This document shows positions 4,149 to 42,781 of a stretch of 64,000 nucleotides of DNA, one piece after another. The translations under genes were made by a program, and so were the position numbers. Positions within the stretch are counted from its first letter, which is position 1, and each line of letters begins with the position of its first letter. The notes beneath the pieces were generated by a model. That model worked only from the letters and a program-made list of their open reading frames with translations, did no database searches and was not told where the DNA came from. Source of the stretch: an uncultured bacterium (GTDB lineage Bacteria > Verrucomicrobiota > Kiritimatiellia > RFP12 > UBA1067); contig CACYQU010000005.1 of assembly GCA_902776615.1 (NCBI GenBank), forward strand, positions 1,408 to 65,407, given 5' to 3'.

Positions 4149-4618
4149 GAAGAGGCTTCACGATACTTGAGCTTCTCGTGGCGAGCCTTCTTCTGGGAAT
4201 GCTCGTGACGATACTCACGATGATATTCAACCAGTCGTCCATCGCCTGGCGAACCGGCATGGCCGGTGTCGCCGATCTGGACCAGGTTCGCGACAACATA
4301 GCCGAGATACGCGAAGAGGCCGACAACATATTCGTATACGGGCAGTCGGCCTACCGCCTCACGGGGCTGTGGGACAAGAGCGGCAATCTGCGCAAGCGGG
4401 CCTGCTCGTACGGAGACTCGCATGCCGAGGATGAAATCGTGCTTTTGAAAAGCGTGAACGGGTCTATGCGCGGCAACCAGATCGGCACCGTTTCCGTGGG
4501 GTCTGGAAATGGTGGCCGCAATGTAAAGACATACACCGTCGGCGTGACTTCGTGGGGGCCTGACGGGAAGGAAAACACCTACGACGACATAACAACATGG
4601 CCGGACGAGATAGAATGA
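4145..4618 (+). CDS. Pseudopilin-like protein with a prepilin-type N-terminal signal (157 aa)
   Basis: The N-terminus is MRRGFTILELLVASLLLGML. An ATGA overlap links it to the upstream gene. Confidence 0.75.
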   Translation: MRRGFTILELLVASLLLGMLVTILTMIFNQSSIAWRTGMAGVADLDQVRDNIAEIREEADNIFVYGQSAYRLTGLWDKSGNLRKRACSYGDSHAEDEIVLLKSVNGSMRGNQIGTVSVGSGNGGRNVKTYTVGVTSWGPDGKENTYDDITTWPDEIE

Positions 4619-5082
4619 TGAAAAAGGCATTTACACTTGTTGAGCTGCTGGTCGTGATTGCAATGATCGCGATACTGACCGGCGCCGTCGGAACATCTGT
4701 TTCCGGCGCGCGGGCACGCGCCCGCGAGATGAAGGCGACCGCCGAGGTGAAGGAGATGACGAACGCGATTCTCGCATACGAGAACTACGCGCGCGCCGGG
4801 GGCTATGGTCTCGAGACGATGGACGCCGACGCCACCATAAGCACGGTCGGCTTCATACTCGGGAAGGGCGAGACTTCCGATTCGGGCGAGAAGATACCGG
4901 TGCTTTACAACGGCGCGGTCGGCGCGGACGGCACTTTGCGGGATCCATGGGGCAAACCTTACAGGGTGAGGATTGTCGAGGGCACAGTTCCTTCAGTCTC
5001 GTCCACCGCCGCCAGTTCGATGGCGACCGGCTATATGATGCCTAACTTCTACAGACTTTCGATAGGGGAGCGCAACAGATGA
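4615..5082 (+). CDS. GspG-like (major-type) pseudopilin paralogue
   Basis: ATG 4615 overlaps the upstream TGA. The N-terminus is MMKKAFTLVELLVVIAMIAILTG and the C-terminal DPWGKPYRV matches the GspG DPWGxxY signature. The longer ORF-track start at 4597 is unnecessary. Confidence 0.75.
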   Translation: MMKKAFTLVELLVVIAMIAILTGAVGTSVSGARARAREMKATAEVKEMTNAILAYENYARAGGYGLETMDADATISTVGFILGKGETSDSGEKIPVLYNGAVGADGTLRDPWGKPYRVRIVEGTVPSVSSTAASSMATGYMMPNFYRLSIGERNR

Positions 5083-8000
5083 AATCGACACGTTCCAGAC
5101 GGGGAAGCGCGCTTCTCATAGTGCTCGGCATGCTTGCGTTCATCGTCGTGTCGGCCGTGGCGTTTGCGGCCTATATGCGTGCATCGCGCCTGCCCTCAAG
5201 CTATCTAAGGCGAACCGCCGCCGCGAGAATGCTCGCCAAGGCCGCGATATCGCAGGCGATAGAGCAGATCGACACCGCAATCGCCAACAATCCTTATCCA
5301 GACCAGCGCACGGGAACGCAGCTGCCTTCTCAGAAGCGCGTCGAGAATCTGAACGAAACAGGCGGCGAGTGCCGCAACTACTGGTGGCACAACATCTTCA
5401 TCGGCGACGATACCTGGATGCGCCCGGAGGACACGGTCTCAACGCTTACGCTCGAGGGCCTCGCCTACATTCCGCCGCCGCTCGTGAACGAGGCGCGCCG
5501 CTATTCGCGCATGTCAAAGGCCGCGACCTGGCACACGATGGGTTTCGATTCGGGGCGGTATGCGTTCTGCGCGATTGACGTGTCGGACTGCCTGGACATC
5601 AACCGCCTCGTTGCTGATGGTCGCCGCAATTCTGGCGCGCGCCGCATAACGCTCGCCCACCTGTTCGAGAATGACACGCACACGTCGTATGCACAACAGC
5701 CGTCCGGCTGGGAAACGTTCATGAGCGACTACCGCGCCAAACTCGCCGACGATCAGGAATCTTCCCAGCCGAGGTTCACGCAGGCGAAGCTGCCGCTCGT
5801 GTCGCTTGCCGACTGGAACCTCGCCGCGTACGCGAAATCGGCAGGTGGAGTGGAAAGCCCGTTCTGCAAGTTCATCGAAGGCTCTGGTACGGAATTCTAC
5901 AAGGGCGTAGGTTCTCCTACCGGTGCTGAAGCAGACAAAGTGCGTGCCATGCATTTCGTTACCGACAGTTACTTCCCGCCGGTGGAGCTTCAAAGCGACG
6001 AGTGCGACCTTTGCTCTTACGAAGGCCAGCCTTTCGATTCGTTTAGCGACAATATACCGCTGTTTAGGATTCTCGCAATGGGCGAAACCGGTTCGCGCGG
6101 CATGCAGCTGATAAACAAGAAGGTTTCAAAGATGGATCTAATAAACCTCTACGACTACCTCGACGGCAACGACGTGCCAGTTTCTCTCGCCGTGCCCACG
6201 ACAGAGCGTGTTCCAATGATTTGCGCAGTAAAGCCCGGCTTGGTATCGTCTTTCGCGCTCAACGGCAACCCGCTTGTTTCCGAAGACAAGAACGCGCAGA
6301 CGAAGACCAACACACAGATTTACGAATACAAGTTGAACGGTGCTGAACTCCTTAAGATGGGAATGATCGAGACATGGGCCGCCTTTCCATTCCGTCGCGA
6401 CGAGGCCTCGAATGACAACTTCACTTATGAGGGAAGCCTTAGGCTCTTTCTGGCACCATCTGGTGTTCCGCTAAGATGCGGAAGCGGCAGTCAATTTAAT
6501 AGATTGCGTCCTGCCGACGATGCCGACTGGCAGAAAGACAGGCAGTATGAAAATGGCGTGTTCAAGGTGAAGCTTGCCGCGCAGGGCCAGCCGATATTCA
6601 CCAATATCCAAAAAGAGGAAGACGCCGTAAAGAAGTTGAACTTTCCAGTGCAGCTGGGAAGTCTCGCCAACGCATTTTCAGACCCCGTGTTTCGTCTAAA
6701 AGTTAGCTACCCGTACGATCCGAAGACGGGTGTTACCGATACCACCCAGCCTACATATCTGGAGGCTCATTGCTCCTATCCCCCGCTTACGATTGACGGC
6801 GAGATAAACGACGCGTACGCGAACGACGCCAAGTTCCTTCAGATGATGAAGGATGGTGGCGGCGAACAGCTTACGCTATATGCGGCTGTCTACATACGGG
6901 TGAAGAACAGTGAAGGCAAGACGGTTGATATGGTGCCAGCAGGATATAAAGATGATTTGTTGAACGGAGTTAATAATGAGCAGCCACGACCGGATATCCC
7001 TATCTCGATATGCGGTCAACCTGTTCCGATTTTGCGCTTTACAGGGTCGCAACAGATTACATACAGCCCGAGGGGGTTTGATTCCCTGCCAACGGGTCAG
7101 CAGACATTTACTCCGAGCTGTGTGATGTGCCCCGACCCGCGATTCAACCATGCTCCCGAGAACTGGATGGAGAAAAATGTCGCGTCCGAGGCCGACTGGA
7201 TAAGGGAGTGCGGCGCGGCAGGTCGTGATGGCGATATCTTCATGTTCGTATCCAATCAAGAGTATCTGCAATCTATTTACGAACTGTCGTTCCTCCCCAA
7301 CTTCAGTGAGTTGAACCGCTCTGGCGACATGATGCGGGGCAATTGTCATACGCCGGCTGGAAACAGTACGGCGTATCCGCAGAGTATTGCGGATTGTGCC
7401 AACGGAAACCTCATGTGGAATACATATCGCTGCTATCCAAACCAAAACGGCGGTCGGCACGACTTCGAGAGTATCGGGCTTGTAGTGAACGATGGTGCGT
7501 TTCGCGTCAATCCCTTTGCACAGTCCGTGGACGCTCTTATGCCGGCTTTCGCCAACACGCCGTACGACTGGTGGGCTGCCTCCACAAACAATCCCGATAT
7601 AACCGTAAGCGACTGCGATTCTGCAAAGACATTCAACTCTAAGTATGCTTTCAGCCAGATGAACAACAAGGCAAAGTTCGCCTGGGAAGATTTGCGGAAT
7701 ATAGCGAAGTATTTCCGCGAAGAGGTTCGCAACAGTGAGGGCAATTGGGAAGATGCCTTCGACAAGCTAAAGTGGGATGGCGACAGCGACCACTTCGGGT
7801 CTGAAACCGAACTGAGCAGCGATACGGACGAGCTTTACGGTGTGGATCGCAAGTTCCTTTACGGTTTCTGGCATGATTCGTTCGCGAACCGCCAGCAGCT
7901 GTTTTTGGTGTTCGTTCGCGCCGAGCCCATGATGATGGGCGGCGGTGGCGTCGGGCAGACGCCGCCCTCGCTTGGCGCGCGCGCCGTCGCGCTCGTCTGG

Positions 8001-25444: not shown

Positions 25445-28264
25445 ATGATCAAGAATACATTCGCTTTCCTTGTTTGCACGGTCGCGCTTTTCGCGGCCAC
25501 CGAGTCGTCGGCGCAGTCGCGTTCGCCGTCGCTTCTGCGGTCTGGCGCCGCATCGCGCGCGAGGCGCTCTGCGGAACCGCCTGCGAACGAGACGCAGTCC
25601 GCCGCGGCGGACGAGGCGCAGTCGGGCGATGCCGCCGAGCCGAAAGAGGCCCCTGCCCTCAATTGGGACGCCGCGCCCGTCGACATTGTGCTTCAGACCT
25701 ACGCCGAGCAGATCGACAAGACGATTCTCAAGGATCCCGCCGCGCCTACGCCTACGATCACGCTCAAGACGCGCGAGGGCCAGAAACTCACGAAGGAGGA
25801 GTATCTTGAGGCGATCGAGGTTGTTCTTGAGATGAACGGCATCCACCTCGAGCCGTACGGCGAGCGCTTCATCCGCGCACTGCCGAGAAAGGACGTGCGC
25901 AAGGAGGGCATTCCGCTCATCATGGATCCCGAGACGAAGCTCGGCGACACGGGGCGCGTCGTTTCGATGATGATACCCTTCAAGAACATCGGCACCGAAG
26001 AGGCACAGAAGGCGCTGGAGGGCTTCAAGTCCAACAGCGGCATTCTGCTTGTCTTCGAGCGCACGAACTCCATTCTCGTGACCGACACCGAGCAGAACAT
26101 AAACCGCATGCTCGAGATCGCCCGTTCGATCGACATCGCGACGCCCGTTCTCGAGAACGTGTTCGTGCGGCAGGTCAAGAACGCGAGCGCGCAGGACATA
26201 AAGACCGCGCTCGAGGCGATAGTGCAGGAATCGCAGAAGGAGCTCGAGAAGAACGGCAAGGCCGCCAACAACCAGAATGCGTCGCCGGCTTCGACGCTGG
26301 CGGGCCGCCCGATGATGCCGAGGCTTCTCAATTCGCGAAACTCCAACGCCAACCAGCCTGCCCCGCCGGTGAACAACGAGTCGCTTGTGATGAGCGTTTC
26401 CGACGCAGATCGCGGCATGATACGCGGCAAGGTTCTCATTCTCGCCGACGAGCGGTCGAACAAGCTGATAATCGTTACGCAGAAGGCCAACATGGACTTC
26501 TTCGACAGGGTGATCGAACAGCTCGACGTCGAGACCACGCCCGATACCGTGGTCAAGGTATACCGCCTGAAGTACGCCGAGGCCGAGGAGGTCAGCGACA
26601 TGATAAACGACCTTATCGGCAATTCGTCGTCGTCCAGTACGCGCTCCGGCCAGAACCAGAACGCGAACGCCAAATCAGGCAGCGGCGGAAACCTTACGAG
26701 AAGCAGCTCGCAGGCATCGGCGGCGGTCAAGAAGTCCGCAAACCAGCGCTCGGGCGACGCGAAGGCGGGCGAGCTCACGAAGGAGAATACGACAGTCCTC
26801 GCCGACAAGCGCATCAACGGAATCGTCGTCATGACCGAGAAGGAGCTGGTGCCGACCATCGAGCAGATTATCGAGTCGATGGATGTAAAGCTCAGCCAGG
26901 TTCTCATCGAGACGGTGATTATCGAAGTCACGCTCGGCGACGACCTCAAAACCGGCATCGACTGGGTTATGCGCGGGCGTCAGCGCGGTAGCGAGCAGGC
27001 GACCGATCAGTACGGCAGAAAGCTGTATCTGACGACTGGCGAGGACGGGAAAATCACCACCACTACAGAAGAGACCGACACGCCGTATATGGTCAGCCGC
27101 CTTTTCAGGGACGGTCTTGTCAACGCAAACAACTACATGCTTGGCGGCGGTGGCGGAAATGGAAGCGGAGTGCTGGGCACCATGATGGCGGTTGGCACGA
27201 ATGTGGCTAATGCGGCTGCATGGGGTGGCGCAAATCCGATCAGCGGAGGCCTTAACTACTTCCTGAAGAGCGACAAGCTAAATCTCGCCGCGGTCGTTCA
27301 GGCTTCGAAGTCGGACTCCCGCTCGAAATACATTGCGTCGCCTATTGTCATGACAGTCGACAACAAGGAAGCGACAATCGATGCAACTGAAAACAGGCAG
27401 TTCCTCACGGGTTGGTCCGCCCAGTCGGGCTCTTACGGCAACAGCGGCCAGCCTACGCCGAACTACAGCGCAAAAGACATCGGCATAAAGCTTAAGATTA
27501 CGCCGAAGATCAATCCCAACGGAACGGTGATGCTCACTGTCGAGGAGGAGTATTCGCAGTTCCATGAAAACGGTCAGTCGATGCTGATTCCTGAAAACGG
27601 CGTGTACAAGGCGGGCTTTGTCGATCTCGCAGTGGAGCGCAAGATGTCCGCCGACATACTTCTCGACAATATGCAGACTGTTGTTCTCGGCGGCCTAACT
27701 GAAACCGTCAAGGCTGAAAGCGAGAGCGGCATTCCGATTCTGAAAGACATTCCATGGATCGGCAAGTGGCTCTTCGGCAGCGTTACGCAGACGGAATCGC
27801 GCAAGGAGCTTTTGGTGTTCATGACGCCCTACGTGCTGGACGATGGCGATATGGCGCAGGCAGAGGCGTTGCGCCGCAAGAAGTCGCTCAGCGACGCAAG
27901 GCCCTGGGAGGATCACGGCTGGAGCGCGTCCGAGCTGGCTGATCCTGTCAGCAAGAAGGAGCAGATGCGCCGCCTCAAGGACGAGTGGAAGAAGCAGGAC
28001 GAAGAGCGTAAGACAAAGCTCGCCATCGAAAGCGAGAAGATCAAGCGCGCCAAGGCGCTTGAGGCGATGTCCGAAGAAGAGCGCAAGTTCTGGCTTGAGA
28101 TGCACATGGAAGAGTTGCAGGAAGAGCAGCGCAAGGAGCTTGAGAAGAAGATGCTCGACCCCGAGAGCCAGGATATGCTGAGAGAGCTCATCGATGACGT
28201 TCGCGAGCGCAAGCAGGCCGAGGCCAACGCCGCGCTCGACAAGGCCGAACAAGAGGCCAAGTGA
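25445..28264 (+). CDS. gspD: Secretin (GspD/PilQ family) with a roughly 140-aa charged C-terminal extension
   Basis: It has a signal peptide, repeated secretin N-domains, and the canonical C-domain motif ...VVLGGL...ESGIPILKDIPWIGKWLFG...LLVFMTPYVL. Confidence 0.9.
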   Translation: MIKNTFAFLVCTVALFAATESSAQSRSPSLLRSGAASRARRSAEPPANETQSAAADEAQSGDAAEPKEAPALNWDAAPVDIVLQTYAEQIDKTILKDPAAPTPTITLKTREGQKLTKEEYLEAIEVVLEMNGIHLEPYGERFIRALPRKDVRKEGIPLIMDPETKLGDTGRVVSMMIPFKNIGTEEAQKALEGFKSNSGILLVFERTNSILVTDTEQNINRMLEIARSIDIATPVLENVFVRQVKNASAQDIKTALEAIVQESQKELEKNGKAANNQNASPASTLAGRPMMPRLLNSRNSNANQPAPPVNNESLVMSVSDADRGMIRGKVLILADERSNKLIIVTQKANMDFFDRVIEQLDVETTPDTVVKVYRLKYAEAEEVSDMINDLIGNSSSSSTRSGQNQNANAKSGSGGNLTRSSSQASAAVKKSANQRSGDAKAGELTKENTTVLADKRINGIVVMTEKELVPTIEQIIESMDVKLSQVLIETVIIEVTLGDDLKTGIDWVMRGRQRGSEQATDQYGRKLYLTTGEDGKITTTTEETDTPYMVSRLFRDGLVNANNYMLGGGGGNGSGVLGTMMAVGTNVANAAAWGGANPISGGLNYFLKSDKLNLAAVVQASKSDSRSKYIASPIVMTVDNKEATIDATENRQFLTGWSAQSGSYGNSGQPTPNYSAKDIGIKLKITPKINPNGTVMLTVEEEYSQFHENGQSMLIPENGVYKAGFVDLAVERKMSADILLDNMQTVVLGGLTETVKAESESGIPILKDIPWIGKWLFGSVTQTESRKELLVFMTPYVLDDGDMAQAEALRRKKSLSDARPWEDHGWSASELADPVSKKEQMRRLKDEWKKQDEERKTKLAIESEKIKRAKALEAMSEEERKFWLEMHMEELQEEQRKELEKKMLDPESQDMLRELIDDVRERKQAEANAALDKAEQEAK

Positions 28265-28455
28265 AGAGGGATGACGTGAGGGACGTGAGAGACGCGAGAG
28301 GCGAGAGAGGGACGACGTGAGGGACGCGAGAGGCATGAGAGACATGAGCGAGCGGGACATGAGAGACGCGAGAGACATGAGGCCCATGTCCCTCACGCCC
28401 CCCACGTCTCTCACGTCATCAAAGCCTCTCCCTCTCACGTCATCAAAGCCTCGCA
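28265..28455. repeat. Left copy of a flanking repeat element, expanded and internally duplicated, with purine-rich and pyrimidine-rich halves
   Basis: The core 28328-28412 matches 29227-29311 at 82/85 positions. The 17-mer GGATGACGTGAGGGACG is shared at 28269 and 29209. A 24-bp tandem CTCTCACGTCATCAAAGCCTCTCC lies at 28408 and 28432. Confidence 0.85.
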
Positions 28456-29201
28456 TCATTGGTGCTTATGGGGGCTACCGCAAGACTCTGTCATTCGGAT
28501 ATGTGTGCCTTGTCTATCACGCCACTACGACTTTCTGCCGCCGCAACTACGACTACAAGAACGACCCTCTTGGCAAGACCGTCGGCCAGATGGTCGGCGC
28601 GGCGCGTTCGGCGCGTCAGAATATCGTAGAGGGCTCCGCCCGCGCAGGAACATCGAAAGAGACCGAACTGCGCCTTTACGATGTGGCCAAGGGTTCTCTT
28701 GAAGAACTGGCCGGCGACTACGAAGCTTTTCTCATTGACGCGGGAATCGCGCCATGGGCGGAAGACGATCCGCGCCACGCTTCTTTCGCATCGGCTGTTC
28801 TTGATGTATATGAAGGCGGCTATTCGCGTCACGATTATGCGGAATACATGCTTGCGATGCGAAAGCGCTTCGCTCCCTTTCTGGAGAATGAAGACCCGAT
28901 CATTGCGGCAAACGCGATTCTCGTGATTATCGACCGCGCGTGCGGTCTCCTTTCCAGGCAGATGCAGGCGATAGGCGAAATCTTTACCGACGAGGGCGGT
29001 TTTACGGAGCGTCTCTCGAAAGCGAGACTTGCGGCGCGTGATGCCAAAGACGCTTCACAGGGTGCTCCGACATGTCCTGATTGCGGCGGAGCCATGCGCA
29101 AGATGATCGCGCGAAAGGGGCGCAACGCGGGCAAACCGTTTTGGAGCTGCTGCGACTATCCCCACTGCCAGGGAACCAGGCCATGGAAGGGAGGGGTATG
29201 A
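28386..29201 (+). CDS. Four-helix-bundle protein (23S rRNA IVS-protein family with suffix domain) fused to a topoisomerase-type C4 zinc ribbon
   Basis: Motifs present are ...GGYRKTLSF...YHATTTFC...QMVGAARSARQNIVEGSARAGTSKETELRL...GSLEEL..., plus the C-terminal CPDCGG...FWSCCDYPHCQG. The start is uncertain between 28317 and 28386 because all candidate ATGs lie inside the repeat. Confidence 0.7.
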   Translation: MSLTPPTSLTSSKPLPLTSSKPRIIGAYGGYRKTLSFGYVCLVYHATTTFCRRNYDYKNDPLGKTVGQMVGAARSARQNIVEGSARAGTSKETELRLYDVAKGSLEELAGDYEAFLIDAGIAPWAEDDPRHASFASAVLDVYEGGYSRHDYAEYMLAMRKRFAPFLENEDPIIAANAILVIIDRACGLLSRQMQAIGEIFTDEGGFTERLSKARLAARDAKDASQGAPTCPDCGGAMRKMIARKGRNAGKPFWSCCDYPHCQGTRPWKGGV

Positions 29202-29206
29202 GAGAG

Positions 29207-29320
29207 AAGGATGACGTGAGGGACGAGAGAGGCATGAGAGACATGAGCGAGAGGGACATGAGGGACGCGAGAGACATGAGGCCCATGTCCATCACGCCCC
29301 CCACGTCTCTCGCGCCATCA
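29207..29320. repeat. Right copy of the flanking repeat element
   Basis: See the left copy. It starts 6 nt after the four-helix-bundle stop and ends about 18 nt before the next ATG. Confidence 0.85.
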
Positions 29321-29337
29321 ACAAAAGGGGGCAACCA

Positions 29338-30336
29338 ATGAACACTAAATTCATCTCTATAATCGCCGTATGCATCGCCGTGGTTGCGGCGGCCATCGCC
29401 GGCGTGGTTGCAATGAACGACCGCGCGGCAATCGCGCGCGCCAACGCCACCCGCGCCGAGAGCGAAGAGGCGCGCGCCTCGAGCGAGGCGAAAAAGGCCC
29501 GCGCCGAGGAATCCGCCGAGGCAAGCCGCGCCGCTGTGAAGGAGAGCGAGGCCAAGGCCGCCGAGGAGAACAGCCGGGCCAAGGAGATCGAGCGCGAGAC
29601 CGAGCGTCTGGCCGGCGAGCGCGCGAAGGAAGAGGCTGCGAAAGCGAAGTCCGAAGCCGAGGCTGCGAGGGCGAAGGCGCGCGAGGCCGCCGACCTCAAG
29701 GCCGCCGAGAAAGCGAAAGCCGACGCTGCGGCCGCAGAGGCGCAGGCCAGAATCGACGTGGCGAAAGAAGAGGCCGCAAAGGCCCAGGCCGAAGAGGCGG
29801 TGCAGGCGGCGCTGCTGGAGCGCGAGCGCATCGCGTCCGAGAAGGTGATTGCCGAGAAGACGGTCTACGAGATGCGCCAGCGCGATCTCGCCGCGCTCGA
29901 GAGCGAGCTTATCGACTGGCAGCGCGATCTCGCCGAGCGCGAGGCGGCGCTCAGACCCGAGAAGACCGCCGCCGATCTCACATGGGTCGGCGAGCGCGAG
30001 GCCGATGTGATAGGCGGCGAGACAAACCGCGTGCGCCGCGCCGCTAAGCCCGCGCCGGAGAACGATCCCGACCTGCCGCGCGAGACGCGCGAGCTCGCCA
30101 GGGCGGATCGCCTGAAGCTCGATGACGACAGGCTCGTCGCCAACGTCACGAGCAACACGGTCGTTTCGGCGCTGGAGAGGCTTTATCTCGAGGCGATACG
30201 CGACGACCGCGTGGTCGACGCGCAATACTACCTGAAGAACATAAAGATGTACTATCCCAACTGGCGCTACACGCCGCCTGCCGAGGCGAAGCCTGCGCAG
30301 GAGGAAGAGGTCAAGAAGGAAGAAGAGGAAAAATGA
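29338..30336 (+). CDS. Membrane-anchored Ala/Glu/Lys-rich coiled-coil protein, function unknown
   Basis: It has an N-terminal TM segment (FISIIAVCIAVVAAAIAGVVA). About 170 aa of AEAKxxAEE-type low-complexity coiled coil and a conserved-looking C-terminal domain follow. Confidence 0.6.
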   Translation: MNTKFISIIAVCIAVVAAAIAGVVAMNDRAAIARANATRAESEEARASSEAKKARAEESAEASRAAVKESEAKAAEENSRAKEIERETERLAGERAKEEAAKAKSEAEAARAKAREAADLKAAEKAKADAAAAEAQARIDVAKEEAAKAQAEEAVQAALLERERIASEKVIAEKTVYEMRQRDLAALESELIDWQRDLAEREAALRPEKTAADLTWVGEREADVIGGETNRVRRAAKPAPENDPDLPRETRELARADRLKLDDDRLVANVTSNTVVSALERLYLEAIRDDRVVDAQYYLKNIKMYYPNWRYTPPAEAKPAQEEEVKKEEEEK

Positions 30337-37031: not shown

Positions 37032-38137
37032 AAAAAGCAGTTAAAACAGTGTTCAAGACGCTCCTTTGGATCGTCGTGGCAGTCGTGGCGGCCGTTCTGG
37101 CCCTGCCGCTTTGGATATCGCCCGTTGCGAAAAGCGCGGCCAACGGAGCCGTGCCCAAAATAACGGGAACGGCGTTCAGGCTGGGCGACTTCGGGCTCAA
37201 CTTCTATACGGGGAAGTTGCGCGTTGGCGATGTTACGCTCTTCAATCCGGAGGGCTACACGCCGGCGGAGGCGTTCAAGCTCGGTTCGCTGAACGTGGAG
37301 CTTGAGGTGCTTTCGGCGCTTTCCGATACGGTCGTCATAAACGACATAACGATACGCGACGTGTTCGTATCCTATGTGAGCAAGGACGGCGTGAACAACT
37401 TCGAGGCCATTCTTGAGAACGTGCAGAAGGCGACTGCCGGCGAATCCAAGGAAGAGCCTGCCAAAGAGGCGGAAGAGCCTGCCGCCAAGGACGAGAAGCC
37501 CGCGAAGAAGGTCGTCATCGACCACCTGCTCATCGACGGCGTGAAGGTGCAGTGGGGCCCCGTGCCGATTACGCTTCCGACGAAGATCGAACTTACCGGC
37601 ATCGGACGCGAGTCGAACGGTGTCGACTGGAGCGAGGCCGCGAACGAGATATTCGACGCCATCATGAAGCAGATGAACGCTCTCGGGCAGGGGCTCGTGG
37701 ATTTGGGCGGTGCGCTCAAGGACATGGGGCTCGACGGCGCCAACCAGGTTTTGGACGCGGTGAAAGACGTCGATGTGCAGGGCGCGGTCGATGCCGTGGG
37801 CGGTGCGGCCGGAAAGGCGATGGACGCCGCAGGCTCGGCATTGGGGTCTGCAACGGACGGCGCCGGCGCGGCCTTCAATTCCGTGAGCAAGACGCTCGGT
37901 TCCGCGACGGAGGGCGCGGGCGAAGCGGTTGGCTCCACCGCCGCGAGCGTCGGCAAGGCGGCGGGATCCGTCGCCGAGGGCGCAGGGAAGGCGATCGGCT
38001 CGGCGGCTGACGGTGCAGGCAAGGCGCTTGGCGCGACGACTGACGCCGTGAAGTCCGGCGCGGGCGCCGCGGTGGATGTCACCACCGATGCGCTCAAGGG
38101 TGCAGGCAACGCGGTCAAGGGGCTTTTCGGCAAGTGA
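37028..38137 (+). CDS. Membrane-anchored AsmA/DUF748-like protein with a C-terminal Gly/Ala 11-mer repeat array
   Basis: It has an N-terminal TM segment (LLWIVVAVVAAVLALPLWI). The C-terminus carries repeats GSATDGAGAAF, GSATEGAGEAV, GSVAEGAGKAI and GSAADGAGKAL. Confidence 0.5.
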   Translation: MKKAVKTVFKTLLWIVVAVVAAVLALPLWISPVAKSAANGAVPKITGTAFRLGDFGLNFYTGKLRVGDVTLFNPEGYTPAEAFKLGSLNVELEVLSALSDTVVINDITIRDVFVSYVSKDGVNNFEAILENVQKATAGESKEEPAKEAEEPAAKDEKPAKKVVIDHLLIDGVKVQWGPVPITLPTKIELTGIGRESNGVDWSEAANEIFDAIMKQMNALGQGLVDLGGALKDMGLDGANQVLDAVKDVDVQGAVDAVGGAAGKAMDAAGSALGSATDGAGAAFNSVSKTLGSATEGAGEAVGSTAASVGKAAGSVAEGAGKAIGSAADGAGKALGATTDAVKSGAGAAVDVTTDALKGAGNAVKGLFGK

Positions 38138-41528: not shown

Positions 41529-42781
41529 GCGACAATGAGGCCAAATGGTTCCTGCGCACGCAGGACGAGACGTTCGGACCCGAATCGGAAGAGAAGCTTG
41601 TTGCATGGGCCAAGATGGGCCGCATACAGCCTGGGCAGGAGCTGTCTGACGACAACATCGTATGGCGGCGCGTCGAGGAAGTCCCTTTCCTCGACATGCG
41701 CTATTCCATAGATTTGGGCGATGGCAATCCTAGAGGTCCGTTCCACAGAGCCGCCGCGGAGGCGCTTCTTGCGTCGGGGCGCCTCCCCAAGACGGCCACC
41801 ATTGTAGAGGTGCGCGCTCCGTTCGTGGAAGACGAGCGCCCTGTCGAGCCGGCCTCGCCGGTCTCTCCTGCCGCGCCTGAACAGCCTGCGCCGAAGGTGA
41901 TTGTGCAGGAGAAGGTTGTCGTCAAGGAAGTCCGCGTCGAGGTTCCCGTCGAGAAAGTTGTCGTCAAGGAGGTCCGCGTCGAGGTTCCGGTGGAAGTCGA
42001 GAAGATCGTCGTGGACGAGACGCGCGTCAAGGAGCTTGAGGCGCAGGTCGTCGCCGACGCACAGCGGTTGGCGGATGCGAAGCGCGAAGCCGACAAGCTC
42101 AAGGAGCAGGTAACGTCGCTTGAGGACGAGCTGCGCCGATTGCCGCAGGCCGCGAGCGAAATCGCCGACATCCAGGCGGCGATGTTTTCGGCAATGACGA
42201 ACGAGGCCGGGGAACTGCAGAAAATGCTCGAGGAGGAAAAGCGCGAGGCTGATGAATTCCGCAAGCGCCACCAGGAACGCGCCGACAGGCTTCTCGAGCG
42301 TCGCCGCAACCTTCTCAAGCGCGCGGGCGCAAACATCGAAGAGATGACGCGCAAAGCGCTTGTCGAGCGTCCGGAAGATCCCCGTACGGCGCAGTACCGC
42401 AAGGAGCTGGAGGAGCTCAGGCGGGTGAGTGAGAGAAGGGCGTTCGAGTATGAAGACCGCATTCGCGATTTGACCGAAAAGCTCAAGGTGCGGGAAACCG
42501 AAATCGCTCGGGCCGCCGCCGGCGTTAAAGATGTCACGCAACTTCAGGCGGAGGCACAGGCGCTGAGGGAGCAACTGCATCTTCGCGAGAAGGAGCTTAT
42601 GGCCGAACGCCAGAAGAGCGAGGAGATGCGCCAGCAGCAGGCATTCGCGCAACAGGCCATGATGGCGCGCCTTGCGTCGCTCGAGTCCCCTTCGATAGGC
42701 ACGGCGCAGTCGCTTTCGACCAACCAGAGCCGCGAAGCCAAGATGGTCAAGCTTCCCCGCTGGATGAAGATCGGATTATGA
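41525..42781 (+). CDS. Paralogous protein with tandem GYF_2-like domains plus a coiled coil
   Basis: It shows KWFLRTQDETFGPESEEKLVAWAKMGRIQPGQEL...VWRRVEEVPFLDM. Its start overlaps the upstream stop, and a long coiled coil follows. Confidence 0.55.
   Translation: MSDNEAKWFLRTQDETFGPESEEKLVAWAKMGRIQPGQELSDDNIVWRRVEEVPFLDMRYSIDLGDGNPRGPFHRAAAEALLASGRLPKTATIVEVRAPFVEDERPVEPASPVSPAAPEQPAPKVIVQEKVVVKEVRVEVPVEKVVVKEVRVEVPVEVEKIVVDETRVKELEAQVVADAQRLADAKREADKLKEQVTSLEDELRRLPQAASEIADIQAAMFSAMTNEAGELQKMLEEEKREADEFRKRHQERADRLLERRRNLLKRAGANIEEMTRKALVERPEDPRTAQYRKELEELRRVSERRAFEYEDRIRDLTEKLKVRETEIARAAAGVKDVTQLQAEAQALREQLHLREKELMAERQKSEEMRQQQAFAQQAMMARLASLESPSIGTAQSLSTNQSREAKMVKLPRWMKIGL
41909..41992 (+). 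repeat. 42-bp tandem duplication (x2) inside the GYF_2 paralogue
   Basis: GAGAAGGTTGTCGTCAAGGAAGTCCGCGTCGAGGTTCCCGTC is followed by GAGAAAGTTGTCGTCAAGGAGGTCCGCGTCGAGGTTCCGGTG. Each unit encodes EKVVVKEVRVEVPV. Confidence 0.9.

Follow-up and report, generated by a model that had tools for sequence, protein, structure and literature searches.

A gene for a four-helix-bundle and zinc-ribbon protein, enclosed by repeated iteron hairpins in a secretin-operon spacer, points to a little-described kind of gene cassette

In the genome of an uncultured bacterium of the Kiritimatiellia (Verrucomicrobiota; RFP12; UBA1067), a single gene encoding a four-helix-bundle protein with a zinc ribbon is enclosed by two long, repeated hairpin elements and occupies the spacer downstream of an outer-membrane secretin gene. 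The locus lies in a stretch of 64,000 nucleotides (nt), here called the window (NCBI GenBank assembly GCA_902776615.1, contig CACYQU010000005.1, positions 1,408 to 65,407 of the forward strand), and its features are all on the plus strand; the loci and contigs used for comparison bear L numbers. The upstream host gene (25445..28264) encodes a secretin of the GspD/PilQ type with 939 amino acids (PF00263 Secretin, 1e-36), which scores 334 bits against TIGR02517 GspD, slightly below the cutoff of 351. Its stop codon directly adjoins the left hairpin element (28265..28460), which was delimited by repeat search, Tandem Repeats Finder and RNA folding. The cassette gene (28386..29201) encodes a four-helix bundle followed by a TIGR04258 suffix domain (about 28902-29039) and a predicted C4 zinc ribbon (about 29070-29186), and the right hairpin element (29202..29321) begins 1 nt past its stop codon. 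The downstream host gene (29338..30336, from the open reading frame (ORF) call and synteny) encodes a membrane-anchored coiled-coil protein of 332 amino acids, which accompanies the secretin in conserved synteny among relatives, lying 3' of the cassette in L001, L002, L003, L012 and L014 and preceding it in L015 and L016. The gap of 1.07 kb between the secretin stop at 28264 and the next ATG at 29338 contains one ORF; these boundaries had been given by a first-pass annotation made from the sequence alone, and the ORF calls agree with them, as the analysis does with all of its coordinates.

The left element is composed of a purine-rich arm (about 28270-28381) of approximately 9-nt GACRTGAGR units and a complementary pyrimidine arm (28382-28420), and Tandem Repeats Finder returns a 9-nt period with the unit GACGTGAGA. 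It is enlarged by internal duplications, and the part of it that is repeated directly, 28303-28422, matches 29202-29321 over 120 nt without gaps at 93% identity, with 8 mismatches, three of which fall within 28328-28412, the core for which 82 matches in 85 positions had been claimed. The 17-mer GGATGACGTGAGGGACG was likewise found where it had been reported, at 28269 and 29209, and when up to 3 mismatches are allowed the window contains four matches, where 0.22 would be expected. Within the 64 kb the hairpin tip GACATGAGGCCCATGTCC is confined to 28374 and 29273, and no further copy of the repeat was found in the window beyond the two. At the end of the pyrimidine arm, a local tandem duplication (28408..28452; 21 nt 100% identical at a spacing of 24 nt, as the first pass had noted for 28408 and 28432) contributes N-terminal leader codons of the cassette gene.

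The complementarity claimed for the purine-rich and pyrimidine-rich halves also proved to be real, as inverted pairs were found and the hairpins fold beyond shuffled sequences. The left and right 120-mers fold better than their dinucleotide shuffles (z -5.1 and -3.9, respectively), the right element with an RNA fold of -44.5 kcal/mol, and the whole left element (28262-28460) reaches an RNA minimum free energy of -93.7 kcal/mol (z -6.3). The arms can also pair across the gene: the left pyrimidine arm and the right purine arm (29210-29248) are 82% complementary over 39 nt, and the two long-range duplexes, each joining an arm of one element to the complementary arm of the other, amount to -99.3 kcal/mol versus -98.9 kcal/mol for the two local hairpins. 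An Rfam search of 27500-30000 returned no rRNA family; its matches, all below threshold, were to miRNA precursors of plants and animals and reflect the generic long hairpin, and a promoter and terminator scan of 28000-29600 returned nothing on the plus strand, the hairpins being without a T-run. The tip ATG of the right copy opens an 18-codon frame (29285-29341, MSITPPTSLAPSTKGGNQ) that ends in a TGA overlapping the start codon of the downstream gene (ATGA, 29338-29341), an overlap that would permit translational coupling; the left copy has the same tip ATG, and the arrangement is not kept in L014, L001 or L002.

The cassette protein matches the NCBIfam suffix domain TIGR04258 with 58 bits (curated cutoff 40) at residues 196-241 of the 294-residue ORF, and homologues are named "four helix bundle suffix domain-containing protein" in their source records. 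For the bundle itself, the window protein stays below threshold for PF05635 (23.7 bits, gathering threshold 33.8) and TIGR02436 (22.8 bits, threshold 24), and a precomputed PF05635 match is present in many homologues; similarly, PF01396 (Zn_ribbon_Top1) scores 23 bits for a cutoff of 32, and most homologues carry a precomputed match. All 38 sequences compared keep the four zinc-ribbon cysteines, the structure prediction places three strands at residues 213-243, and a profile search of the PDB gave a weak match to the GRF zinc finger of NEIL3 (E 0.03). The GRF-type zinc finger, as in NEIL3, binds single-stranded DNA. The AlphaFold2 model (predicted local distance difference test score 84.5) shows a helical bundle and, C-terminal to it, a three-stranded ribbon, and the best PDB match found by Foldseek is Xcc0516 (2gsc; probability 1.0, TM-score 0.78), with BT_0352 (2rld) also retrieved. 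The R..S...N..EG motif in helix 2 of the S23p family is present as ARSARQNIVEGS, invariant among the aligned homologues. The model thus predicts that the protein has the four-helix-bundle fold of the S23p or intervening-sequence (IVS) proteins, like Xcc0516 and BT_0352, and with the TIGR04258 match and 2gsc as top structural match the first-pass assignment to this fold stands. Homologues in the S23p family form bundles of five subunits (2gsc; PMC4990558). Given its homology to the pentameric Xcc0516/Avd bundle, and a zinc ribbon of a single-strand-binding type, the protein is probably an oligomeric nucleic-acid binder, and it may recognise the GAC iterons of its own flanks.

The family comprises 788 matches, mostly about 70% identical, in Kiritimatiellia and related metagenome-assembled genomes, with 147 representatives of 50%-identity clusters at E <= 1e-30. 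No match to the cassette protein was found in the PADLOC and PHROGs libraries, no relative in IMG/VR, and only zinc-ribbon matches in phage and plasmid records. In an alignment of 23 homologues the conserved core starts at 28455 (IIGAYGGYRKTL), and where some homologues extend further at the N-terminus, the extra residues are translated hairpin, low in complexity and not conserved. In 69 of 85 loci a start codon in frame is found no more than 12 codons from the core, so the hairpin is non-coding there. The window is among the 16 exceptions: the proximal ATG of L001 and L014, 6 codons before the core, is ACG in both copies of the duplication (28410-28412 and 28434-28436), so that the first usable in-frame ATG is the one at 28386, in the hairpin tip. 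Conservation of the N-terminal peptide, in combination with repeats unique to the locus and no empty site in relatives, had been set beforehand as grounds for giving up the idea of an element; the peptide is not conserved, and that idea survives. For the same reason the reading of the repeats as ordinary coding repeats, in favour of which the ORF is open through the left hairpin in the window, was rejected.

Enclosure by such repeats is common in the gene family. About 90 loci were collected from Kiritimatiellia, Lentisphaerae and Verrucomicrobia genomes (74 of them non-redundant), and at each one the 350 nt upstream of the conserved core were compared with the 350 nt downstream of the stop codon, alongside geometry-matched controls. 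The best direct-repeat score between the flanks has a median of 78.7 bits versus 19 in the controls, and 55 of 81 loci exceed the 95th percentile of the controls (Mann-Whitney p 3e-22). Median length and median identity of the repeats are 92 nt and 85%, the left copy ending a median 60 nt 5' of the core and the right copy starting a median 12 nt past the stop, and the palindrome score of the flanks is also above that of controls (p about 1e-14). The question raised by the first pass, whether other four-helix-bundle genes are bracketed in the same way, is answered affirmatively for 61 of the 74 non-redundant loci, with repeats and hairpins at 38, repeats only at 13 and hairpins only at 10, leaving 13 with neither.

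The sequence of the repeats is wholly different between lineages and the design is fixed, consisting of iterated 7- or 9-nt units in GAC and GTC arms. GAC is constant at the 7- or 9-nt spacing, the remainder of the unit being freely variable, and GAC and GTC trinucleotides together make up 6.1% of the flanks versus 3.6% of the controls (p 2e-23). The GAC arm comes first in 49 flanks versus 19, and thus the polarity of the arms relative to the coding strand is kept though the sequence is not. Seven hairpins that were folded have z values of -3.1 to -7.3, and among windows corrected for G+C content, z <= -3 is reached by 4.0% near the gene versus 0.26% elsewhere. The raw minimum free energy of 240-nt flanks fails to discriminate them from controls because the coding controls are richer in G+C, and GC-corrected, palindrome and shuffle tests were used in its place; early hairpin detectors (purine-fraction windows and minus-strand blastn) were too strict and were discarded. 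A metagenome scan with the generic iteron pattern GAGRGACRYGAGRGACRYGAG gave at least 120 matches. Most of those inspected (L094-L213) are 9-nt tandem repeats of the GAGGGACGC or GAGAGACGC type on varied environmental contigs, and the four-helix-bundle gene is on none of the matching contigs inspected.

Genomes carry 2-4 paralogues at separate loci, and each of them has its own private hairpin sequence. In 16 same-genome paralogue pairs, compared in both directions, the flank score across loci is about 15 bits, which is background; the left and right flanks of one and the same locus score 65-228 bits for at least one member of each pair. The two ends of a locus are also homogenised episodically: the left and right copies of the window share the stretch CACGCCCCCCACGTCTCTC, which is missing from both copies of L014 and L001, two loci whose left copies cluster together, as do their right copies. 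The presence of a window-specific stretch in both copies indicates the homogenisation, and consequently the 93% identity of the two copies does not date an insertion.

The gene lies 3' of a secretin gene in the window and in L014, L002, L003, L012 and L017, and elsewhere it is found between glycosyltransferase genes, between fliR and a barnase/barstar-flhB group, inside type I restriction-modification operons (HsdM/HsdS), and between cas7 and cas4 of type I-C operons; its 101 neighbouring genes match 90 Pfam families. With bracketing found across the family and at many unrelated intergenic sites, the description of the interval as a self-contained, hairpin-bounded module is upheld. At the secretin locus the gene is old, vertically inherited and under purifying selection. 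The same junction is occupied in relatives whose secretins are 59-83% identical, and identity between the window and L002 is 87% for the cassette gene, 66% for the secretin, 43% for the downstream protein and 91% for YchF; the shared junction, together with conservation above that of neighbours, shows that the insertion there is not recent.

Rare movement is visible in two comparisons with close relatives that lack the gene at the junction in question. In L015 and L016 an orthologue 90.6% identical to that of L002 lies one junction downstream, between the coiled-coil gene and ychF, a junction that in the window is a 4-nt gene overlap and hence empty. The vacated secretin junction of L015 holds one hairpin, whose 5' part resembles the left copy of L002 and whose 3' part resembles the right copy. 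In L073 the order is cas7, hairpin, four-helix-bundle gene, hairpin and cas4, and in L239 and L240, with a Cas7 94% identical to that of L073, it is cas7, a solo hairpin, a Fic gene and cas4 (4416-5565), the solo hairpin again being a chimera of a left copy's 5' end and a right copy's 3' end. Among closely related type I-C operons, the content of the cas7-cas4 junction varies. In L236 this junction (4416-4861) contains neither a GAC hairpin nor a four-helix-bundle gene, and consists of a 447-nt spacer with a different small palindrome; the corresponding stretch of L237 and L238 is 4407-7465, with unrelated genes taking the place of cas4 in L237.

Private hairpin copies also bracket neighbouring genes, namely the secretin gene in L012, YhcG and Fic genes in L028, and a peptidase gene in L020. 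The array of L028 runs hairpin, YhcG, hairpin, four-helix-bundle gene, hairpin, Fic, hairpin. Arrays of hairpins and genes extend over 4079-8060 in L028, 10443-11757 in L020, 2562-5934 in L012 and 6773-7991 in L030, and the cargo across these four includes a YhcG nuclease, Fic, a trypsin-like peptidase, a DUF1559 protein and a secretin. Recent transposition was sought through sequence-identical proteins (P0096, P0102 and P0110) and no sign of it was found among them: each has one upstream context every time, which indicates that movement is rare. The gene for P0110 in L218, L220 and L222 has the same upstream genes and three downstream contexts, which diverge about 75-170 nt past the stop and suggest that the right-hand repeat or its immediate vicinity is a hot spot of rearrangement.

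Of the insertion and mobility that the first-pass annotation had proposed, the part that stands is the displacement of the gene by one junction in L015 and L016, with a solo hairpin and no gene at the old site of the L002 type; a recent insertion at the secretin locus is not borne out, since the gspD junction is otherwise occupied in relatives and the gene is old. Machinery of a mobile element was not found either, there being no recombinase or transposase in the module and no dispersed copies in the window. The module could be called mobile only in respect of rare relocation events and the comparison of contexts.

The closest parallel to this organisation is the IVS of 23S rRNA, known from Leptospira, Coxiella and others. 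Its protein shares the fold family of the cassette protein (2gsc; weak PF05635 and TIGR02436), its gene also lies within complementary flanks able to form a long stem, and the element is likewise tolerated inside a transcription unit. In Coxiella, the IVS has a 28-bp terminal stem cut by RNase III, and GACAGAT heptamers, short tandem units of the GAC type as in the cassette, precede the S23p ORF (PMC4990558). However, the window cassette lies between secretin and coiled-coil genes and not in a 23S rRNA helix, each of its flanks is a complete hairpin and the flanks are direct repeats, whereas the IVS has a single pair of terminal inverted repeats, and its protein is twice as long, with the suffix domain and zinc ribbon.

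Short S23p genes outside rRNA have stems of the IVS kind. On L006 (8835-9363) a classic 23S_rRNA_IVP gene of 127 amino acids lies between flhB and a sigma-factor gene and is enclosed by a 40-nt terminal inverted repeat, 98% complementary, of GGAAGTTT units; on the related contig L007 the S23p gene is absent at the equivalent position, and the downstream genes differ too. Thirteen short S23p genes were taken from Nostoc, Calothrix, Scytonema, Geminocystis, Stanieria, Leptolyngbya, Riemerella, Gemmatirosa, Azospirillum and a Kiritimatiellae genome, and nine of them have an inverted iteron stem between upstream and downstream flanks above the 99th percentile of controls, the upstream arm being purine-rich in all nine. 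Short S23p genes with an iteron stem (a-gene-a') share the architecture of the 23S rRNA IVS, and the form in the window is a variant, a a'-gene-a a'. Several of the records (L224, L226, L227 and L230-L234) are plasmids of Nostoc, Leptolyngbya, Riemerella, Scytonema, Geminocystis and Stanieria; in these cultured cyanobacteria and Bacteroidota the genes are annotated "four helix bundle protein" or "S23 ribosomal protein" and the inverted stems are built of 7-nt purine-rich iterons (GGGAAAA, GGGAACA, GGAGATA, GGTTTAA and others). The cyanobacterial 7-nt iterons may overlap with the heptanucleotide short tandemly repeated repetitive (STRR) sequences. Genes of the same superfamily, annotated 23S_rRNA_IVP, were noted before inside cas operons (Zhang, Doak and Ye 2013, PMC3936711), type I-C operons with a relative of the window gene between cas7 and cas4 being cases of this kind, and "four helix bundle protein" genes have been listed as CRISPR-associated (PMC10910872); in the portions of these two articles that were available, flanking repeats or hairpins are not described.

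Our preferred interpretation, to which we give about an even chance, is that the interval is an IVS-like, hairpin-bounded accessory-gene cassette of the S23p/23S-rRNA-IVS-protein lineage, placed in a secretin-operon spacer, whose stems are processed in the transcript. Functionally, the cassette would end at its hairpins. Once transcribed with the operon, these would give long double-stranded stems, whether through local folding or through an isoenergetic long-range pairing around the gene, and the stems would be cut by RNase III-type enzymes, as the stems of rRNA IVSs are. Cleavage would separate the cassette mRNA from the host cistrons and thus limit polar damage, and in DNA the repeated hairpins would provide homology for rare deletion, relocation and exchange of cargo. 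A wider generalisation is offered tentatively, as something possible that falls short of likely: S23p genes, in both short and long zinc-ribbon forms, may be the cargo of unrecognised transposase-less cassettes that settle in operon spacers (cas, restriction-modification, secretion and flagella) of many phyla and in rRNA genes, each with a private stem of 7-9-nt iterons read by its own oligomeric protein and cut from the transcript, an "intervening sequence of mRNA operons", with solo hairpins as footprints or landing pads that capture other genes.

Several observations weigh against the processing of an IVS-like cassette. The RNase III step is argued purely by analogy, and solo hairpins beside other cargo (L239, L028) fit a DNA recombination site at least as well. 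The plus and minus strands of the hairpins fold equally well, so no excess of G-U pairs marks selection on RNA over DNA, and RNAalifold on 12 orthologous hairpins gave a covariation term of +0.41, in an alignment whose register the iterons make ambiguous. Local hairpins do not need the likeness of left and right copies, which requires an extra explanation such as gene conversion or long-range pairing. Furthermore, 13 of the 74 loci have neither repeats nor hairpins, and the suffix-domain homologue of Prevotella nigrescens (L223, NZ_CP082843.1, 260483-261172), 35% identical to the window protein, has no zinc ribbon and no flanking direct repeats, only a downstream palindrome. Lastly, an identity of about 70% across classes suggests a cellular role for the protein beyond the cassette model.

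Alternatively, the hairpins could act in DNA, as recombination sites that fold as single strands, like attC or the repetitive extragenic palindromic (REP) units with their REP-associated tyrosine transposases (RAYT), and that serve the insertion, excision and exchange of genes, with the protein as a dedicated hairpin-binding or mobilising factor; we regard this as the main rival, though somewhat unlikely. It would account for the solo hairpins where the gene is absent, for Fic (L239, L240) and the four-helix-bundle gene (L073) alternating at one junction, for the array of L028 and the hairpin pairs around the peptidase gene of L020 and the secretin gene of L012, and also for the differing downstream contexts of identical proteins and the frequent contig ends at four-helix-bundle genes. 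As in integrons, hairpins of about 100 nt mark gene boundaries with a fixed polarity to the gene, arrays carry varied cargo, and one site is left when the cassette is absent. Unlike in integrons, the module contains no integrase or attI, the GAC iterons have by reading no attC core of the GTTRRRY type, and single-gene cassettes are scattered in functional operons, each with two near-identical, locus-private flanks; Phage_integrase was found in only 2 of 101 neighbours, the whole window not having been scanned for integrases. The one-to-one pairing of paralogue and private hairpin recalls the specificity of RAYT for REP or REPIN sequences, where the gene is likewise flanked by cognate palindromic repeats and each paralogue has its own family, and the zinc ribbon is probably of the topoisomerase/GRF type, which binds single-stranded DNA. 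However, the protein is a four-helix bundle with a zinc ribbon and not a Y1/HUH transposase, and has no recognisable catalytic motif of a recombinase or transposase, while the repeats, unlike REPs, are long iteron hairpins in direct orientation without dispersal in the 64 kb or among same-genome loci. The hairpin families are local to a few kb, with two copies in the window and background similarity between loci of one genome, and the single upstream context of identical proteins gives no sign of recent transposition. Moreover, L015 has at its relocated site hairpins unlike those of the old site, with about 75% identity between them, which is not what a moving circle of gene plus hairpins would leave.

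It is unlikely, in our estimate, that the GAC units are only cis-regulatory iterons, bound by the oligomeric protein of the cassette or by a host factor for autoregulation, for example through sequestration of a Shine-Dalgarno-like arm, with no role in mobility. Such a function would suit the constant GAC at 7- or 9-nt spacing in an otherwise variable unit, the purine-rich, Shine-Dalgarno-like arm that always lies 5' of the gene, the position of the window's only in-frame ATG at the hairpin tip after GAGG, the pentameric bundles formed by homologues, and the strong purifying selection on the protein. It leaves unexplained why a downstream copy is retained and resembles the upstream one, why solo hairpins stand beside other genes, and why insertion contexts are so diverse. 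The zinc ribbon is also nearly invariant among paralogues with differing iterons, so that specificity could lie only in GAC.

A diversity-generating retroelement (DGR), with the two copies as its template and variable repeats, was considered because Avd, the DGR accessory protein, is a four-helix bundle that belongs to this fold family (PMC10053308). The avd gene is often found between two direct repeats of about 100 nt (variable and template), a layout similar to that of the cassette. This candidate was rejected: the 598 differences between left and right copies (loci with at least 60 bits) are symmetric, mostly transitions and not adenine-specific, A being involved in 28-30% of them on either side, and the repeats are non-coding hairpins, neither of which is at the 3' end of a target gene, both lying outside the flanking host genes. 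No reverse transcriptase was found in the cassette or among the 25 neighbour families listed, the window not having been exhaustively scanned. That the arrangement is coincidence or ordinary sequence of any sort, be it generic REP-like repeats (hairpins resembling the cassette flanks do occur at other junctions in some genomes, such as L062 and L065), a low-complexity coding N-terminus or DGR repeats, is highly improbable, the association of repeats and hairpins with the gene being very strong when viewed from the gene.

To our knowledge, the function of the S23p/23S-IVS protein family has been open since 1993. The family is annotated only as "four helix bundle protein" and occurs unexplained in cas, restriction-modification and other operons, and the conserved stems or hairpin pairs of iterons private to a lineage, solo copies and the exchange of cargo turn a conserved hypothetical gene into a defined genetic unit, one that offers a candidate RNA or DNA structure for cleavage, a protein for binding tests and excision junctions to seek. 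What was known already is the 23S IVS with its S23p ORFs and the presence of 23S_rRNA_IVP genes in cas loci (PMC3936711, PMC10910872). In the literature searched, no account was found of flanking iteron hairpins, private repeat pairs or solo hairpins, or of stems around short S23p genes in protein-coding operons, and taken with the results above this suggests a type of gene cassette that has been little described. Annotation is affected as well: spurious N-termini of low complexity are added to ORF calls by the hairpins, and the cassettes interrupt operons that are usually read as contiguous. The contigs that carry four-helix-bundle cassette genes are mostly short, and the hairpins may break metagenome assemblies. 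Elsewhere in the window, Tandem Repeats Finder also reports two unrelated tandem duplications, at 41909-41988 (a 42-nt unit repeated 1.9 times, 94% matches) and at 37982-38045 (a 33-nt unit repeated 1.9 times, 80% matches).

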